19,819 nt of DNA from Escherichia coli (GTDB taxonomy: Bacteria > Pseudomonadota > Gammaproteobacteria > Enterobacterales > Enterobacteriaceae): the NCBI RefSeq assembly GCF_003334315.1, contig NZ_QOWR01000071.1. One strand, written 5' to 3'. Shown here piece after piece: positions 1 through 19,819 of the stretch (within the stretch, counting starts at the first letter, position 1; each line of letters opens with the position of its first letter). A program made the position numbers and the translations under genes. The notes below the pieces were generated by a model that did no database searches, was not told where the DNA came from, and saw nothing but the letters and a program-made list of their open reading frames with translations.

Positions 1-149
1 GGTTGAGAAGCGGTGTAAGTGAACTGCAGTTGCCATGTTTTACGGCAGTGAGAGCAGAGATAGCGCTGATGTCCGGCGGTGCTTTTGCCGTTACGCACCA
101 CCCCGTCAGTAGCTGAACAGGAGGGACAGCTGATAGAAACAGAAGCCAC
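1..149 (-). CDS. insA: IS1 InsA, N-terminal part (partial CDS, runs off window start)
   Basis: GTG start at 149..147 (reverse complement of cac), followed by codons for [48 protein letters not shown] as recalled for InsA. Below the 60-aa track threshold because it is truncated by the window edge. Confidence 0.75.
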
Positions 150-204
150 TGGAGCACCTCAAAAACACCATCATACACTAAATCAGTAAGTTGGCATCAT
201 CACC
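1..204 (-). mobile_element. IS1 insertion sequence, partial (left inverted repeat and insA 5' region); element continues beyond window start
   Basis: Reverse complement of 181-204 reads ggtgatgatgccaacttactgatt, matching the IS1 terminal inverted repeat from memory (one A/C variant); the rest of 1-204 matches the IS1 insA 5' region as I recall it. IS end abuts the yjgL-like frame at 204/205. Confidence 0.85.
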
Positions 205-907
205 TCGATGTTGAAGACTTTTTTAAAATTGCCATATATTAATGATGTAAAAATTCTGGAGTGGTGTTTTAATCAAAGTATGCAATATTCTGATGATACT
301 ACAAAGATAAAGCATGCCCGCTCCGTGATCGATCATATTGATTTTAACTGCGATCAGTCTAAAATAGCTGAGACATTATTTTTCAACCTCAATAAAGAAC
401 CCTATAAAAACAGCCCTGAGTTACAGGAATTGATTTGGGAGAAGTTGGTTGTATATGTCAATGATTTTAACTTAAGCAATCAAGAAAAATCACGCTTAAT
501 ACTAAGGTTATTTGATGATGTTAAGTTGCTATTTAATGAAGTGTCTGTCAGCATTTTAGTAAATGATATTTTTTTTGAAGGATTTTTTCATGAAGCAACC
601 TGATTTTGCGAAGTGGTACTTCTATCAATTACTTAAGAAGTATGAGGGCGAACAGCTGTATCTTAATGAGTTAGGATATGTTTATGGTAATGAAGAAAAA
701 ACAAATGAAATTGTAAAAAAACATCCGGGTTATGTCATTAAGATTTTTGAAGAAAAGATGGGTAATGAATTAAAAATTAGAACAAGAATGATGAAAATCC
801 TCCGGAATGGCAAAATCAATATATATGAATATATTAATAATGAACAGTTGGGAAAATTAAATCCTCCGGAAGATTTACGTATAGTAATAGAAAAATTTGG
901 GTGGTAG
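205..907 (+). pseudogene. AT-rich ORF remnant truncated at its 5' end by IS1 and split into two frames (208-603, 563-907); position matches yjgL of K-12 by synteny only
   Basis: Reading frame is open from the IS1 boundary (stop at 187-189 lies inside IS1) into the 131-aa ORF. A second 114-aa ORF overlaps in another frame near a T8 homopolymer (about 568-575). Low GC, F/N/K/I-rich. Lies upstream of and divergent in strand from argI, as yjgL does in K-12. Confidence 0.5.
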
Positions 908-936
908 AATAGAACTATTACTACATAAAATAATGT

Positions 937-968
937 GATGCCGGGATAGTTTTGTATTTCCCGGCATC
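937..968. terminator. Bidirectional hairpin terminator between the yjgL-like remnant and argI
   Basis: Perfect 10-bp inverted repeat gatgccggga (937-946) / tcccggcatc (959-968) with a 12-nt loop; T-rich flank on the minus strand just 3' of the argI stop (985). Confidence 0.5.
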
Positions 969-984
969 TTTATAGCGATATCAA

Positions 985-1989
985 TTATTTACTGAGCGTC
1001 GCGACCATCACCGCTTTGATGGTATGCATACGGTTTTCCGCCTGATCAAAAACAATGCTGGCGGCAGATTCGAAGACCTCATCAGTCACTTCCATTCCGC
1101 CATGTAGGCCAAATTCTTCCGCCATTTTCTTACCAAGCGTCGTTTGGTCGTCATGAAACGCGGGCAGGCAGTGGAGGAATTTGACCTCCGGGTTACCAGT
1201 CAACTGCATCATCTTGCTGTTCACCTGATAATCACGCAGCAATGCAATCCGTTCCGCCCATTTCTCTTTTGCTTCACCCATCGACACCCATACATCGGTA
1301 TAGATAAAGTCAGCACCTTCAACTCCTTTGGCTACATCTTCCGTCAGCGTAATATCCCCGCCATTTTGCTGTGCCAGGGCGCGGCATTCCGTAACCAGCG
1401 CAGCTTCCGGCCAGCATGCCTTTGGCGCGACCAGACGCAAATCCAGACCGGTAAGCGCCGCAGCTTCAAGCATCGAGTTTCCCATGTTGTTACGTGCGTC
1501 ACCTGCATAGACCAGCGTCATTTCGTTGAATGTTTTACCGGGCAAATGCTCTTGCATGGTGAGAAGATCCGCCAGCAGCTGGGTGGGGTGGAACTCATTG
1601 GTCAGGCCGTTCCATACTGGCACGCCAGCGTATTCCGCCAGTGTTTCGACAATCTCCTGACCATAGCCGCGATACTGAATACCGTCATACATGCGACCAA
1701 GCACGCGGGCAGTGTCTTTAATCGACTCTTTATGACCAATCTGGCTGCCGCTTGGGCCGAGATAAGTAACGCGAGCACCCTGGTCATATGCGGCAACTTC
1801 GAAAGAGCATCGGGTACGAGTCGAGTCTTTTTCGAAGATGAGCGCGATGTTTTTACCAGTGAGTTTGGCTTCTTCTTTACCACTTTTCTTATCGGCTTTC
1901 AGCTTCGCGGCTAACTGCAGCAGGCTGTTGAGTTCAGCTGGCGTGAAATCGAGTAATTTCAGGAAATGCTTATGATAAAACCCAGACAT
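985..1989 (-). CDS. argI: Ornithine carbamoyltransferase chain I
   Basis: 334-aa ORF beginning [35 protein letters not shown] and containing STRTR and HCLP motifs; N-terminus matches ArgI rather than ArgF (MSDLYKKHFL) from memory. Synteny with rraB. Confidence 0.95.
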
Positions 1990-2014
1990 AGATCCCTCCT
2001 GTGGCTAACGCCTC

Positions 2015-2053
2015 AATGAATTAAAATTCAATTTATATGGATGGTTATTCATT
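2015..2053. promoter_or_regulatory. Tandem ARG boxes (ArgR operator) in the argI promoter region
   Basis: Core TGAATTAAAATTCA at 2017-2030 is a perfect match to the ARG-box palindrome; a second degenerate box TGGATGGTTATTCA at 2038-2051 is spaced as expected, 26-64 bp upstream of the argI start. Confidence 0.75.
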
Positions 2054-2150
2054 TGCAAGTCTAAAGCATAAATCTTTGTCACAAAGGTGGAGGCAATGTC
2101 AGTGGTGTGTGACAATAAGAGTATCGGCAGGACATTAAGAGGAATGAGCC

Positions 2151-2567
2151 ATGGCAAACCCGGAACAACTGGAAGAACAGCGTGAAGAAACACGTTTGAT
2201 TATTGAAGAATTACTGGAAGATGGCAGCGATCCGGACGCGCTGTACACCATCGAACACCATCTTTCCGCAGACGATCTGGAAACCCTGGAAAAAGCAGCA
2301 GTTGAAGCGTTTAAACTTGGTTATGAAGTGACCGATCCAGAAGAGCTGGAAGTTGAAGATGGTGATATCGTGATTTGCTGCGACATCCTCAGCGAGTGCG
2401 CGTTGAATGCCGATCTGATCGATGCCCAGGTTGAACAACTGATGACGCTGGCGGAGAAATTTGACGTTGAGTACGACGGTTGGGGCACTTACTTTGAAGA
2501 TCCTAACGGCGAAGACGGCGACGATGAAGATTTTGTCGATGAAGACGATGACGGGGTTCGCCACTAA
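2151..2567 (+). CDS. rraB: Regulator of RNase E activity B (acidic protein)
   Basis: 138-aa highly acidic [40 protein letters not shown] with a D/E-rich C-terminus; divergent from argI as in K-12. Confidence 0.9.
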
Positions 2568-2580
2568 TTAATTGATTAAA

Positions 2581-2614
2581 ATGCCCGATAGCACACACTA
2601 GCGGGCATTTTTTT
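2581..2614. terminator. Intrinsic terminator shared by convergent rraB and yjgM
   Basis: Stem atgcccg / cgggcat (2581-2587 / 2602-2608) followed by a T7 run at 2608-2614; the yjgM stop codon overlaps the T-tract. Confidence 0.7.
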
Positions 2615-3116
2615 AGAGTTCGCGTAGCATCCGCACTTCACAATCGACATGGCCCGTGCAGCCAAGCGCATAGTCGATATGCTCAAAGCCCAAATGCTCA
2701 TAAAGCGCAATGGCTTCCTTTAAAAAAGCGGTCGTTTCCAGATAGCAGCGTTTGAAGCCCATCTCTCGTGCCTGCTCCATCGCCATTAAGGCCAGTTTTT
2801 TCGCCAGCCCTTTACCGCGAATAGCCGGAAGAAAATACATCTTTTGCAGTTCGCAAATGTCCGATTCACTACCTGCTAATGGCGCAATCCCACCGCCGCC
2901 GACCACTTCACCATCGAACTCAACCACCCAATATGCATGGCCAGGCTGACTATACACTTGATACAACTCGTCAAGGTTCGGATCGGCGACGGTGTAGCCT
3001 TTATCAGCGGTAAGACCGTATTCGGCGGATACCTGACGAATGACGCGGGCGATAGCGGGATTATCCTGCTGCGTCAGGCGACGCATTACAGGTGATTGCG
3101 GCGCAATGTTATTCAT
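2613..3116 (-). CDS. yjgM: GNAT-family N-acetyltransferase
   Basis: 167-aa ORF with an acetyl-CoA-binding style motif ([25 protein letters not shown]); position between rraB and yjgN. Confidence 0.85.
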
Positions 3117-3308
3117 AGTTTAACCCAATAAAAATAAAGTAATTATACATTTGTTTAATACCACTCTCTTCTTACGTGCGCAAGCGACTTATAAAGTAAT
3201 AAAGTTTTTGCCAGCCTATTACTGATAAGAGTATTGTAACGTGGCAGAACATTTTACTGTCTGTATCTATAAATTATATCAATGGATTTTTTAATTCAGG
3301 GAATTTTT

Positions 3309-4505
3309 ATGGCTCAAGTTATTAATGAAATGGATGTTCCGTCCCATTCGTTTGTTTTTCATGGCACAGGTGAGAGATATTTTCTTATTTGTGTGGTGAA
3401 TGTGTTGTTAACGATTATAACGCTAGGTATCTATTTACCATGGGCATTAATGAAATGTAAGCGTTATCTCTATGCTAATATGGAAGTTAACGGACAACGA
3501 TTTTCTTATGGAATTACCGGTGGGAATGTTTTTGTTAGTTGTCTTGTTTTTGTTTTTTTCTATTTCGCAATCTTAATGACAGTGTCAGCAGATATGCCGC
3601 TTGTTGGCTGTGTTTTGACTTTGTCACTGTTGGTTTTGCTTATATTTATGGCAGCAAAAGGACTGCGTTATCAGGCCTTGATGACCAGTCTCAACGGCGT
3701 AAGATTTAGTTTTAATTGCTCTTTGAAAGGGTTCTGGTGGGTAACCTTTTTCTTGCCGATTTTAATGGCCATTGGGATGGGGACTGTTTTCTTTATCTCG
3801 ACAAAGATGCTACATGCCAATAGTTCAAGTAGTGTTATTATATCTGTGGTTCTGATGGCAATAGTTGGTATTGTTTCCATTGGTATTTTTAATGGTACTT
3901 TATATAGTCTGGTAATGAGTTTTCTCTGGAGCAATACCAGTTTCGGTATACATCGTTTCAAGGTGAAATTAGATACTACGTATTGTATAAAATATGCCAT
4001 TCTCGCATTTTTAGCTTTATTACCTTTTCTCGCTGTTGCTGGTTATATTATCTTCGATCAAATATTAAATGCGTATGATAGTTTTGTGTATGCAAATGAT
4101 GATATTGAGAATTTACAGCAATTTATGGAAATGCAACGTAAAATGATAATCGCGCAGTTAATCTATTATTTTGGGATTGCTGTTAGCACCAGTTATTTAA
4201 CGGTGTCGTTGCGAAATCATTTTATGAGCAACCTGTCACTGAATGATGGGCGTATTCGTTTTCGCTCAACTTTAACTTACCACGGTATGCTTTATCGCAT
4301 GTGTGCGTTGGTAGTGATATCCGGGATTACGGGCGGTCTGGCTTATCCACTGCTGAAAATATGGATGATTGACTGGCAGGCAAAAAATACGTATTTGCTG
4401 GGCGATTTGGATGACCTTCCTTTAATCAATAAAGAAGAACAACCAGATAAAGGCTTCTTAGCCAGTATTTCACGGGGAATTATGCCTTCTTTACCATTTC
4501 TGTAA
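3309..4505 (+). CDS. yjgN: Inner membrane protein, DUF898 family
   Basis: Multi-pass hydrophobic ORF. Start placed at ATG 3309 (MAQVINEMDVPSHSFVFHGTGERYF) rather than the track start 3282, giving 398 aa as recalled for YjgN. Confidence 0.85.
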   Translation: MAQVINEMDVPSHSFVFHGTGERYFLICVVNVLLTIITLGIYLPWALMKCKRYLYANMEVNGQRFSYGITGGNVFVSCLVFVFFYFAILMTVSADMPLVGCVLTLSLLVLLIFMAAKGLRYQALMTSLNGVRFSFNCSLKGFWWVTFFLPILMAIGMGTVFFISTKMLHANSSSSVIISVVLMAIVGIVSIGIFNGTLYSLVMSFLWSNTSFGIHRFKVKLDTTYCIKYAILAFLALLPFLAVAGYIIFDQILNAYDSFVYANDDIENLQQFMEMQRKMIIAQLIYYFGIAVSTSYLTVSLRNHFMSNLSLNDGRIRFRSTLTYHGMLYRMCALVVISGITGGLAYPLLKIWMIDWQAKNTYLLGDLDDLPLINKEEQPDKGFLASISRGIMPSLPFL

Positions 4506-7889: not shown

Positions 7890-9725
<1,836 letters not shown>

Positions 9726-15136: not shown

Positions 15137-15221
15137 GCCGAAGTGGCGAAATCGGTAGACGCAGTTGATTCAAAATCAACCGTAGAAATACGTGCCGGTT
15201 CGAGTCCGGCCTTCGGCACCA
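15137..15221 (+). tRNA. leuX: tRNA-Leu (anticodon CAA)
   Basis: GCCGAAGTGGCGAAATCGGTAGACGCAGTTGATTCAAAATCAACCGTAGAAATACGTGCCGGTTCGAGTCCGGCCTTCGGCACCA: cloverleaf with long variable arm, anticodon loop TTCAAAA giving CAA, and 3' CCA. Confidence 0.95.
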
Positions 15222-15234
15222 AAAGTATGTAAAT

Positions 15235-15258
15235 AGACCTCAACTGAGGTCTTTTTTT
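15235..15258 (+). terminator. Intrinsic terminator of leuX
   Basis: Stem agacctc / gaggtct (15235-15241 / 15246-15252) with a 4-nt loop, followed by T7. Confidence 0.85.
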
Positions 15259-15407
15259 ATGCCTGAAATCCAGTATTTACCTACCTTTCCCGCTATATTA
15301 ACTCTCTCAAGGTCAACCGACATCAACGTACATCTACCAACACATGTTGGTACAGATGATGGTATTTCCGGTTCGATAATGCTTGTACCAACAGGGAGGG
15401 GATAAGC

Positions 15408-16673
15408 ATGGCGTTAACAGATATCAAGGTCAGAACAGCCAAGCCAATGGATAAGCAGTACAAACTGACCGATGGCAGCGGTATGCACCTGCTTGTCCAT
15501 CCTAATGGTTCTAAGTACTGGCGTTTGCAGTACCGTTATGATGGCAAGCAAAAGATGTTGGCACTTGGGATTTACCCTGAAATAACACTGGCGGATGCCA
15601 GAGCACGTCGTGACGACGCGCGTAAGCTGCTAGCGAATGGCGTCGATCCGGGAGACAAAAAGAAAAATGATAAGGTTGAACAGAGTAAAGCACGAACCTT
15701 TAAAGAGGTCGCGATCGAGTGGCATGGCACCAATAAAAAGTGGTCTGAAGATCACGCCCATCGTGTGCTAAAAAGCTTGGAAGATAATCTCTTCGCGGCA
15801 CTTGGTGAGCGTAATATCGCTGAGCTAAAAACTCGTGATTTATTAGTACCCATTAAAGCCGTAGAGACATCTGGACGTCTTGAAGTGGCTTCCCGCCTTC
15901 AACAGCGCACCACGGCCATCATGCGTTATGCAGTGCAAAGCGGGTTAATTGATTACAATCCGGCGCAAGAGATGGCGGGGGCGGTTGCTTCCAGTAATCG
16001 ACAGCATCGTCCGGCGCTGGAGTTAAGGCGTATCCCTGAGTTGCTTGAGAAAATAGACAGCTATACCGGCAGGCCGTTAACCCGCTGGGCGACAGAACTC
16101 ACTCTGCTTATCTTTATTCGGTCCAGTGAGCTGCGTTTTGCTCGCTGGTCAGAAATCGATTTTGAAACGTCAATGTGGACTATCCCGCCCGAGCGAGAGC
16201 CTATTCCTGATGTGAAACATTCTCAGCGAGGATCAAAGATGCATACACCGCATCTGGTGCCGCTTTCAAAGCAGGCGCTGGCGATCCTGAAGCAGATAAA
16301 ACAGTTCTGTGGCGAACATGAGCTGATTTTTATTGGCGATCACGATCCGCGTAAGCCCATGAGCGAGAACACGGTAAACAGTGCGCTACGGGTGATGGGT
16401 TATGACACTAAGGTTGAAGTTTGCGGCCACGGCTTCCGTACAATGGCCTGTAGTTCGTTAATTGAGTCAGGACTATGGTCGAAGGATGCGGTGGAAAGGC
16501 AGATGAGCCATATGGAACGCAATTCGGTGAGGGCGGCGTATATCCATAAAGCGGAACATCTGGATGAGCGCAAGCTGATGTTGCGGTGGTGGGCGGATTT
16601 TCTGGATGCGAACCGGGAGAAAGGGATTACGCCGTTTGACTACGCGAAGATCAATCGGGGTAATGGCGAGTGA
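15408..16673 (+). CDS. P4-type tyrosine integrase (site-specific recombinase) at the leuX tRNA
   Basis: 421-aa ORF with strong SD (agggagggg) before the ATG; catalytic-domain signatures HGFR and RAAYIH (His-X-X-Arg ... Tyr); begins about 190 bp after the tRNA 3' end, the typical layout for P4-like integrative islands. Confidence 0.9.
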   Translation: MALTDIKVRTAKPMDKQYKLTDGSGMHLLVHPNGSKYWRLQYRYDGKQKMLALGIYPEITLADARARRDDARKLLANGVDPGDKKKNDKVEQSKARTFKEVAIEWHGTNKKWSEDHAHRVLKSLEDNLFAALGERNIAELKTRDLLVPIKAVETSGRLEVASRLQQRTTAIMRYAVQSGLIDYNPAQEMAGAVASSNRQHRPALELRRIPELLEKIDSYTGRPLTRWATELTLLIFIRSSELRFARWSEIDFETSMWTIPPEREPIPDVKHSQRGSKMHTPHLVPLSKQALAILKQIKQFCGEHELIFIGDHDPRKPMSENTVNSALRVMGYDTKVEVCGHGFRTMACSSLIESGLWSKDAVERQMSHMERNSVRAAYIHKAEHLDERKLMLRWWADFLDANREKGITPFDYAKINRGNGE

Positions 16674-16714
16674 GTTGAATGCCGTTATTCCTCGGCTGAT
16701 GTTTAAATTTAAAA

Positions 16715-16757
16715 GACCAACCAGCCCGCTTAGGACTGGTTGGTCGCTGTATTTTTT
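16715..16757 (+). terminator. Intrinsic terminator after the integrase gene
   Basis: Perfect 10-bp stem gaccaaccag / ctggttggtc (16715-16724 / 16736-16745) followed by a T-run at 16751-16757. Confidence 0.8.
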
Positions 16758-16877
16758 CAGAATTCCATCTGCCAGGTACAGAGCCGTCAGGCAAAATGGA
16801 TGTCTGCAATAATGCCTTGAATGTACATATAGTTGCGAGCATCATCGCAAATATGTGCTCATGGATTCTCCAACGCA

Positions 16878-17756
16878 ATGACCTCTGACAAAACCCTAAA
16901 ACAAGCGATATCAAATATCACCATCTGGCGCAAAGGCGAACAACGTGCGCCACATAAGCCATTATTGCTGCTGTACGTTCTCTCACACTATCGGCAGGGT
17001 CATGGTCGCATGTTTAACTATGGTTCTGAAATCTACGAGCCCCTGTTGGATCTCCTGGAACGTTATGGACCGCAGCGCCGTGACCAGCGCCCGGACATGC
17101 CGTTCTGGCGTCTGAAGGGCGATGGCTTCTGGGAACTACATAACGCGGAACTGTGCTCAACCAGTGGTAGCCGCCAGCCGCCCCGACGTGAACTCATTGA
17201 ATATAATGTCGCTGGTGGATTTGATGCCGATAATTTTGCGTTGGTGGCAAAAAATCACAGGTTAATTGATACGCTGGCTCAGCAGCTCCTGGAGGCGCAT
17301 TTCCCGGCCAGTATTCAGGAAGAGATCGCTGACGAGATGGGTTTTGATATTCGCACCTCTCTCCGTCAACGCGATCCGAAGTTTCGCCAGATGGTGCTAC
17401 GTGCTTACAATTATCAGTGCGCTATCTGCGGCTTTAACATGCGCCACGACAATGCGCCGATTGCTCTGGAAGCCGCTCATATCAGATGGAAGCAGCACCA
17501 TGGCCCTTGCGAAGTACCTAATGGCCTGGCATTGTGTGCAATCCACCATAAAGCGTTTGATCGCGGTTCGATTGGCCTGGATGAAAATATGCGTGTGGTG
17601 GTTTCCGGTGCGGTAAATGGTGGTGGAGTGGTACAGCGACTGTTCTGGGATTTTGCGGGAAAGGCGATTGCGTTGCCACCGGTTAAAGAAAATTATCCGG
17701 GCGAGCAGTTTGTTGAATGGCACAGAAAAGAGGTGTTCAGAGGAGAGGGAATCTGA
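16878..17756 (+). CDS. Two-domain protein: N-terminal uncharacterised (possible DNA-modification reader) domain fused to a C-terminal HNH nuclease; candidate type IV-like restriction or defence nuclease
   Basis: HNH motif readable directly in the C-terminus: YQCAICGF ... LEAAHIRW ... NGLALCAIHHKAFD. The N-terminal roughly 170 aa has no HNH features but distinctive motifs (PHKPLLLLYVL, MPFWRLKGDGFWEL). Start chosen at the first ATG (16878); the track ORF begins at a TTG at 16833. First cargo gene after the integrase. Confidence 0.6.
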   Translation: MTSDKTLKQAISNITIWRKGEQRAPHKPLLLLYVLSHYRQGHGRMFNYGSEIYEPLLDLLERYGPQRRDQRPDMPFWRLKGDGFWELHNAELCSTSGSRQPPRRELIEYNVAGGFDADNFALVAKNHRLIDTLAQQLLEAHFPASIQEEIADEMGFDIRTSLRQRDPKFRQMVLRAYNYQCAICGFNMRHDNAPIALEAAHIRWKQHHGPCEVPNGLALCAIHHKAFDRGSIGLDENMRVVVSGAVNGGGVVQRLFWDFAGKAIALPPVKENYPGEQFVEWHRKEVFRGEGI

Positions 17757-17825
17757 AATAGATTGATTTTTTTCTTTAGATTATTAAGTTAGTTATTGAT
17801 AACGGCTTTATTATGTGGAGGGTAT

Positions 17826-18146
17826 ATGGTTAGGCGTAATGTGAAATGGTTGTCTTTCTTTATTTTTATTTCTATTCTGTCTTTATTTCGCGGGTGGTCG
17901 TTTATTAAACAGTTTCATCTGTCGGCATTTACTGTACTTGCTGTATTTATTTATGCGTTGTATAGCTATATAAGAATTTCAACTTTTGTAAATAAGATGG
18001 AGTTAAATAATAAATTTATTGTTTTTCTTAGGTTGAAGAAATTTGTTTTGTTTTTTAAGCAAGGGACTAAGCTCACTATTCTGGAAAGAAATATTGTCTT
18101 TTTTTCAGTTTATATACCTTGTCTGCTTATCATGTGCTTATATTAG
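17826..18146 (+). CDS. Hypothetical small hydrophobic protein (about 106 aa, 2 predicted TM segments); may be a composition artefact
   Basis: ATG at 17826 preceded by GGAGG (17817-17821); hydrophobic stretches LSFFIFISILSLF and AFTVLAVFIYALYSYI. The region is very AT-rich, which favours F/I/L codons, so coding status is uncertain. Confidence 0.3.
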   Translation: MVRRNVKWLSFFIFISILSLFRGWSFIKQFHLSAFTVLAVFIYALYSYIRISTFVNKMELNNKFIVFLRLKKFVLFFKQGTKLTILERNIVFFSVYIPCLLIMCLY

Positions 18147-18447
18147 GTAAAATGCATGTCATTAATAAATGGTTAAATGTGGGTTTGTATAACTAATTCA
18201 TAGGTGTCATTCCAGTTTTATTAGTTAAATTTGTCGTTCTGCTGCTTCAATGTGCCGAAAATAATTTTTTGTTCTTAAATAAGTATTGGCTGATAAATTG
18301 TCTCTCCTTTAATAAAATTTGAAGTTGTTCACGGTTTATAGGGTTCTTCAATTATTAATGTTTTTTCTTTGTTAGCATCTTTCCTCAATGCTATGTATCT
18401 TTATAAAGATACGACCTAATCTTATTTGTCATTTTTAAAATCCTGTA

Positions 18448-18944
18448 TTATATTGTGAAGTATAATAAGCTAAGGAACGAGCCGAAAATAAAAACATGTC
18501 TAAATATTGCTAATCCAACCAGTTCATCAAGGCGACAGCCTTTCCATGATGCATTCCTCCAGCCTAGCTGAAACAATGTTGACCATGATAGAATAAATAT
18601 TCCGGTGGCGCTAACGGCGTCTTTCCATTCTAATGGATAGATAATCCGAAATTTCCCTGAGTAAAATCCAATCGCAATTACTATAAAAAGCACACCCAAC
18701 ATTATTAGCACTGACGCAAGAATGGACTTTCTTAAGTCATCACAATACTCTTCGAGGGAGTGTTTGTGATCATCTGGATTTAGACTGTATTTCCCCGCCT
18801 CAAGTTTTCTCTTATATTCATCCTTCTCAAGTTCAAAAGCCATCTTATTGATAGCACCAAGCGTAATAAATTTTTCCTTGTTGAAGAAAAAATAAAACAT
18901 TGCTTTATAAATATTTTCTTTTTTAGGTAGTTGTGCTGTGTTCA
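18448..18944 (-). CDS. Hypothetical membrane protein (about 165 aa; soluble charged N-terminal part plus 3 predicted TM helices)
   Basis: ORF on the minus strand with ATG at 18944 (MNTAQLPKKENIYKAMFYFFF); the track's longer version starts at a TTG at 18981. Predicted TM segments ILASVLIMLGVLFIVIAIGFY, GIFILSWSTLFQLGW and LVGLAIFRHVFIFGSFLSLLYF. No recognisable family from sequence alone. Confidence 0.4.
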
Positions 18945-18970
18945 TATTCTCATAAAAAATAAGTAACGAT

Positions 18971-18993
18971 GTTGACAGCAAGAAGCTGTCAAC
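18971..18993 (-). other. Perfect 9-bp stem hairpin between the hsdR-like remnant and the membrane-protein gene (possible terminator or leader structure)
   Basis: gttgacagc (18971-18979) / gctgtcaac (18985-18993) with a 5-nt loop, 8 nt 3' of the hsdR-like stop; the T-run lies 9 nt further on, so this is not a textbook intrinsic terminator. Confidence 0.4.
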
Positions 18994-19000
18994 ATGAAAT

Positions 19001-19366
19001 TCACATCGTCCAATGATTCGAAATAACTTCCGCTTGTTTCAAAATTAACTCCACCGCACCCGGCGTTTTATCTGGCGGATACTTATACCGACGCAGAGTC
19101 TGGCGAACCAAGATACGCAGCCTTGCACGAACGCTCTCGCGCACCTGCCAGTCAACGGTAGTTGATTGCCTCAACTTCAAGGTGACTTCTATCGCCAGTT
19201 TCTTAAGCACCTCATCCCCTAACTCTCGGACGGCACTTTCGTTTTCTGCCAGTGCGTCGTAGAAAGCGATTTCGTCAGGATTCAGGCCAAGCGCATCATC
19301 ACGCTCCATTGCAGACTGAAAATCCTTCGCCATCTGGATCAGCTCTTCAATCACCTGCGCCGTCTC
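19001..19366 (-). pseudogene. 3' remnant (about 122 codons) of a type I restriction enzyme R-subunit-like gene, truncated by IS1 insertion
   Basis: ORF ...LNPDEIAFYDALAENESAVRELGDEVLKKLAIEVTLKLRQSTTVDWQVRESVRARLRILVRQTLRRYKYPPDK... resembles the conserved HsdR C-terminal domain (DUF3387-like) as I recall it. The frame stays open upstream right to the IS1 boundary at 19366/19367, as expected for an insertion into a longer gene. Confidence 0.5.
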
Positions 19367-19819
19367 GGTAATGGTCCCAACTTATTGATAGTGTTTTATG
19401 TTCAGATAATGCCCGATTACTTTGTCATGCAGCTCCACCGATTTTGAGAACGACAGCGACTTCCGTCCCAGCCGTGCCAGGTGCTGCCTCAGATTCAGGT
19501 TATGCCGCTCAATTCGCTGCGTATATCGCTTGCTGATTACGTGCAGCTTTCCCTTCAGGCGGGATTCATACAGCGGCCAGCCATCCGTCATCCATATCAC
19601 CACGTCAAAGGGTGACAGCAGGCTCATAAGACGCCCCAGCGTCGCCATCGTGCGTTCACCGAATACGTGCGCAACAACCGTCTTCCGGAGCCTGTCATAC
19701 GCGTAAAACAGCCAGCGCTGGCGCGATTTAGCCCCGACATAGCCCCACTGTTCGTCCATTTCCGCGCAGACGATGACGTCACTGCCCGGCTGTATGCGCG
19801 AGGTTACCGACTGCGGCCT
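19367..19819 (-). mobile_element. IS1 insertion sequence, partial (right inverted repeat and insB); same orientation as the copy at 1-204; continues beyond window end
   Basis: 19367 onward reads ggtaatggtcccaacttattgatagtgttttatgttcagataatg, the reverse complement of the IS1 right end from memory (variant at 2-3 positions); the remainder to the window edge matches insB. Confidence 0.85.
19382..19819 (-). CDS. insB: IS1 InsB (transposase C-terminal part; partial CDS truncated by window end)
   Basis: Translation ...[125 protein letters not shown] matches IS1 InsB; the frame continues open to the window edge. Confidence 0.9.

Follow-up and report, generated by a model that had tools for sequence, protein, structure and literature searches.

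A probable slippage frameshift in an IS1-disrupted yjgL/icaR gene remnant of Escherichia coli

Background

Two short, overlapping open reading frames (ORFs) that adjoin an insertion sequence may be the broken halves of one gene, two genes in their own right, or the consequence of a single misread base. The locus examined here, at one end of a 19,819-nucleotide stretch of Escherichia coli DNA (contig NZ_QOWR01000071.1 of assembly GCF_003334315.1; "the window" below means this whole stretch), raises that question. ORF listing, inspection of the sequence and tblastn alignment all bear out the first-pass annotation's observation that two plus-strand ORFs at 208..603 (131 amino acids (AAs); ORF A) and 563..907 (114 AAs; ORF B), which overlap by 41 bases in different frames, change frame at a run of eight Ts in a remnant of the yjgL gene.

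The yjgL gene has been renamed icaR (PMC9241512). In Shigella flexneri it is activated by MxiE/IpgC via an MxiE box, and the first 20 residues of the IcaR protein direct its secretion by the type III apparatus (PMC9241512). The same authors found that icaR has a low G+C content and has received IS insertions on several independent occasions, and they view it as a fossil gene or one on the way to becoming so; a poly-T frameshift is not mentioned there (PMC9241512). In addition, yjgL is listed as an MxiE-dependent pseudogene in strain 2457T (PMC9769918).

Results and Discussion

The two ORFs and the interrupted gene

Our analysis identifies positions 205..907 (plus strand) as the 3' remnant of the yjgL/icaR allele that encodes the 524-AA protein WP_032161340.1; it contains codons 292-524 and the stop codon, with one extra T. 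This ORF is intact in strains 162.2 and FACU 2024 and represents a shorter allele type than that of strain K-12, whose yjgL is one intact ORF of 604 AAs. When one T is removed, window positions 205-1100 are identical at 895 of 895 bases to positions 2001-2895 of the strain 162.2 locus (L017; such L numbers are our designations for individual copies of the locus). A single ORF spans both parts in K-12 and in L014, L016, L017 and L018, and a split is seen only in copies with T8 or other lesions. Since removal of one T gives a single ORF that is, base for base, the annotated intact gene of other strains, the ORF pattern is not due to chance.

The run itself occupies positions 569..576 (plus strand), so that the first-pass annotation was correct about its existence and length but had put it one base too far to the left (568-575). 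The intact allele has seven Ts at this point and reads GAT ATT TTT TTG AAG GAT (D I F L K D), where K-12 has the colinear residues D I F M N D. In a tblastn search with K-12 YjgL, the frame of the alignment is +1 for residues 363-493 and +2 for residues 487-604 (98/131 or 75% and 62/121 or 51% identity, respectively, with a combined E value of 9e-86 over residues 363-604), and this change of frame places the switch exactly at the T run. It had also been proposed to align the K-12 gene in order to see whether a single-base indel restores the frame; such an indel is indeed found relative to the intact 524-AA allele, but K-12 is a poor base-level comparator, as it has ATTTTTATG (T5, T5-A) at this position and no long run.

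The two ORFs divide this gene as follows. ORF A keeps to the native frame as far as the T run, and its start, ATG 208, is an internal Met codon of yjgL/icaR (..DS-M-LKTF..); past the run it continues through nine out-of-frame codons (FEGFFHEAT) to TGA at 601-603. ORF B has 114 AAs if read from ATG 563 and 105 AAs if read from ATG 590, the start chosen by gene callers, and after the run it follows the native C-terminal frame of the gene to the normal stop codon of the allele, TAG at 905-907. The Shine-Dalgarno-like motif that had been noted before ATG 590 is present (AAGGA-N7-ATG, 578..592, plus strand; AAGGA 578-582, ATG 590-592), but in intact alleles it forms ordinary codons in the interior of the gene (K D F F M). 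K-12 has AATGATTTCTTTATG there, in which the Met is conserved and AAGGA is not.

The yjgL/icaR locus lies between tabA and argI. In the window the remnant is next to argI (985-1989, minus strand) and rraB, as in all relatives, and the tabA side is beyond the IS1 element and outside the window. The G+C content of the window's allele is 34%, versus 51% for argI. Between the convergent remnant and argI is a 10-bp G+C-rich inverted repeat at 937-968 (GATGCCGGGA ... TCCCGGCATC, with a 12-nucleotide loop), which is probably a terminator common to both; because of its long loop it was missed by our promoter/terminator scan.

The intact 524-AA protein has nothing significant in NCBIfam, Pfam and PDB sequence searches, and its best weak matches are to the Pfam family SopA-central (i-E 0.0068) and a Cag10 chain (E 0.18). 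The label "DNA-binding protein" that PGAP attaches to it is not substantiated by these searches. The yjgL alleles fall into very divergent classes, with about 80% DNA identity between K-12 and the 524/531-AA types in the 3' part, and K-12 YjgL (L004 1406-3220) contains a block of approximately 75 residues (~186-262), made up of LNNxQE-like tandem repeats, that is absent from the 524/531-AA alleles.

Elsewhere in the window, the holC-pepA intergenic region (7910-8205) contains tandem REP-like units of about 96 bases, one more than in FACU 2024, which differ from one another by a few bases and a TG dinucleotide. Positions 15137-19819 carry a tRNA-Leu(CAA) gene (leuX), after it an integrase gene (15408-16673), and then island genes, for which the FACU 2024 annotations are phosphorothioated-DNA-binding restriction endonuclease and type I restriction subunit. 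Over 19367-19819, its final ~450 bases, the window has no match to FACU 2024, so the island content differs.

The IS1 insertion

The left end of an IS1 element occupies positions 1..204 (minus strand), and its terminal inverted repeat adjoins base 205. The 5' part of insA runs on the minus strand from ~149 down to 3, pointing away from the gene remnant; minus-strand translation gives the InsA N-terminus (49 letters), which matches the NCBIfam IS1/IS1595 Zn domain (E 5.5e-11) and the IS1 transposase model. Comparison with strain 162.2 places the junction after codon 291 of yjgL/icaR, and the cut left the remnant with neither promoter nor start codon, nor the secretion signal of the N-terminus. 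The MxiE box promoter and the secretion signal both belong upstream of codon 291, outside the window, and the remnant has neither. There are seven promoter-like sites in positions 1-1100 against 4.5 ± 2.2 expected, which is no excess and is uninformative on expression of the remnant.

The window's IS1 junction is present in none of the complete E. coli genomes of our collection, and it was traced through exact-protein look-ups in draft and Logan assemblies, for which the queries were the exact 131-AA product of the T8 truncation and the exact 232-AA product expected for the T7 truncation. Three sequences with the same junction are pertinent. A Logan contig (ERR271230, found in four samples; L020) is 100% identical to window positions 179-3600 (3,422 bases); it covers 26 bases of IS1, the junction and T8, and its called gene at 412-729 corresponds to window 590-907. 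The draft assembly GCA_002466665.1 (L022) matches window 1-3600 at every base but the one T (it has T7), with InsA upstream (its upstream ORF matches Pfam Zn_ribbon_InsA/HTH_Tnp_IS1), and a second Logan assembly (SRR16631698; L024) has the same junction with T7. Thus the IS1-marked lineage holds both T7 and T8 members, and the uninterrupted but otherwise identical haplotype is T7.

The gene is a recurrent IS landing site (window 1-204 and L001, L007, L008, L009, L019, L021 and L023). IS1 alone is found in it at at least five different positions across E. coli strains, at times with an internal deletion (AST19), and in other strains an IS5 and an IS10 end lie 113 and 182 nucleotides, respectively, upstream of the junction seen in the window.

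Length of the T tract among E. coli genomes

When the 85/86-base context of the tract was counted by exact match in 5,426 complete E. coli genomes, at least 1,365 of them had T8, on three allele backgrounds. The window-type allele has T7 in 124 genomes and T8 in 6, the L010-type allele T7 in 239 and T8 in 999, and the L003-type allele T7 in 317 and T8 in 360. Inside one type, T7/T8 pairs have zero or one mismatch over flanks of -300/+200, and between types the substitutions are numerous and in some cases come to within 25-33 bases of the tract. The length of the tract has therefore changed at least three independent times, and on these comparisons it appears to be a recurrent slippage hot spot. 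RefSeq/PGAP mostly annotates the T8 copies as "frameshifted" pseudogenes and sometimes as two hypothetical proteins.

In many strains the reading frame of the downstream part of the gene is broken again, in independent events, near residues 466 and 491-510 (numbered according to the 531-AA L016 reference allele, which was the tblastn query). A second indel site lies at window positions 815-835, where the sequence is AT-rich (ATATATGAATATAT / caATATATGAATATATtaat); a 16-base insertion is present there in L019 and L021, and frame changes near it give a shortened C-terminus in L014, L002, L012 and L005. The frame breaks, the recurrent T8 and the IS insertions fit relaxed selection on a fossil gene.

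Origin of the eighth T

We believe, with a probability of about 0.9, that the split is a neutral secondary lesion, a slippage frameshift in a yjgL/icaR pseudogene already disrupted by IS1. The IS1 element inserted after codon 291, so that the promoter, the start codon and the secretion signal were parted from the last 233 codons. At a later time T7 became T8, presumably by slipped-strand mispairing during replication, and the eighth T shifted the frame of the remnant by +1 to give the two overlapping ORFs. The finding of the same IS1 junction with both T7 and T8 indicates that the insertion came first and the extra T later, and this order, with the second event in an already dead gene, is the simplest history. 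Comparison of the available genomes establishes that the remnant differs by one base, where IS1 joins it, which event came first and that T7/T8 recurs on other alleles; we infer in addition that replication slippage was the mechanism and that the remnant has neither expression nor function. The suggestion, made before these comparisons, that this was a genuine frameshift in an already IS-disrupted gene is therefore supported, with exactly one T separating the remnant from the intact 524-AA allele.

Three other explanations deserve consideration. Homopolymer miscalls are frequent on some sequencing platforms, and the eighth T might be such an error of sequencing or assembly in a genome that is truly T7; all of the closest complete genomes over 19 kb are T7, and T8 is found in only 6 of the 130 genomes that match the window-type context exactly. 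But T8 together with the IS1 junction is present in separate public sequence data, in the Logan contig described above (although its four samples might include the window's source or clonally related runs), and T8 is a common natural state of the tract in the species. FACU 2024, the nearest complete genome (99.9%, with ~19 kb shared with the window), can be told apart by three SNPs, a single-copy change in REP units near 7,910-8,205 and one homopolymer indel, that in the T run; there are eight runs of at least seven bases in these ~19 kb, and none of the others differs. The repetition of junction and T8 in a second data set and the lack of any other homopolymer indel make a sequencing error unlikely, though it is the least improbable of the three. 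Still less credible is the idea that there are two real small genes, the second of them a 105-AA C-terminal part translated from ATG 590 via AAGGA and coupled to the stop codon at 601-603. The AAGGA-N7-ATG spacing is good, the Met is kept in K-12, gene callers and some RefSeq records give two CDSs in T8 genomes, and T8 is in the majority on one allele background (999 versus 239). However, the motif is identical in T7 alleles and so was neither created nor selected with the split, and in the T7 genomes and K-12 the two parts are one gene, so that separate genes in relatives, which the first-pass annotation had named as the finding that would refute it, are not seen in the intact alleles. Moreover, PGAP's usual verdict on the T8 copies is a frameshifted pseudogene, the downstream part is broken further and independently in many strains, and in the window the upstream ORF had already been stripped of its start and promoter by IS1.

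The third explanation is that the tract is a site of programmed recoding (transcriptional slippage, or +1 ribosomal slippage on UUU_U) or a reversible on/off contingency tract. Its length does change repeatedly, with T7 and T8 on three allele backgrounds and inside one IS1-marked lineage; UUU UUU U allows perfect tRNA-Phe re-pairing in the +1 frame, and in Shigella the production of MxiE, the regulator of icaR's regulon, itself depends on slippage at a T9 run. On the other hand, orthologues do not preserve the tract as a shift site (T7 keeps intact alleles in frame, and the K-12 sequence is T5-A), the fold of the RNA of positions 560-680 has no structure beyond that of shuffled sequences (z = -0.51), so there is no downstream structure beyond chance, and the codon after the run is GAA, which is neither slow nor a stop. 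Typical phase-variable or slippage tracts have nine or more bases, and this one has only seven or eight. Above all, no recoding could rescue the window's copy because IS1 had already removed the 5' 291 codons, and for that copy we regard this explanation as exceedingly improbable. A related proposal concerns the T8 strains with an intact promoter and not the IS1-decapitated copy in the window: in those strains the T7/T8 tract might act as a recurrent and perhaps reversible on/off or long/short switch, or be subject to low-level transcriptional slippage. The tract is short, and we consider this very improbable, but if it were true, the approximately 1,365 complete E. coli genomes with T8 would still make some full-length protein, or a functional 427-447-AA form and a 105-AA C-terminal piece translated separately.

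The slippage frameshift in an IS1-disrupted pseudogene, our preferred reading, is a textbook case of stepwise pseudogene decay, with an IS insertion followed by a homopolymer indel, and it has little biological weight. Its practical consequence for annotation is that 205-907 should be described as one yjgL/icaR pseudogene fragment and not as two hypothetical proteins. In the species as a whole, at least one complete E. coli genome in four carries the T7-to-T8 frameshift, which may explain much of the length variation reported among IcaR orthologues.

Comparison with known systems

The window's remnant and the icaR gene of Shigella flexneri and E. coli share the locus adjoining argI, and the remnant's protein identity to K-12 (the 75% and 51% given above) accords with this relationship. 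The 34% G+C of the window's allele is close to the 35.7% reported for icaR, both have the weak Pfam SopA-central match, and the window's copy is IS-disrupted like icaR of Shigella and several E. coli strains (PMC9241512). There are differences as well: in Shigella the IS takes the 3' end of icaR and the secreted N-terminal protein stays, whereas in the window only a 3' remnant is left, which unlike Shigella icaR has no promoter, MxiE box or secretion signal, and the window's allele is of the shorter 524-AA type without the LNNxQE repeat block of K-12.

The Shigella type III secretion gene mxiE, which is expressed by transcriptional slippage on a T9 run, is similar in having a T run on the coding strand and flanking frames that together form one protein. 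The window's run is shorter (T8), however, T7 alleles that read in frame are known, T7 being the ancestral state on this haplotype, and the shifted arrangement is not conserved in icaR.

There is also a parallel with the homopolymer-slippage frameshift pseudogenes of bacteria. As in that class, the window has one additional base in a mononucleotide run, and removing it restores the frame; the change of T7 to T8 is a one-base change of the run whose reversal restores the ORF (895/895). As in that class also, the shift is in an already inactive gene and recurs at one run in unrelated lineages. Nothing material separates the present case from this class, although the shifted state is unusually frequent in E. 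coli (at least 1,365 of 5,426 complete genomes). The case is already accounted for by known processes and is the ordinary decay of a dead gene.
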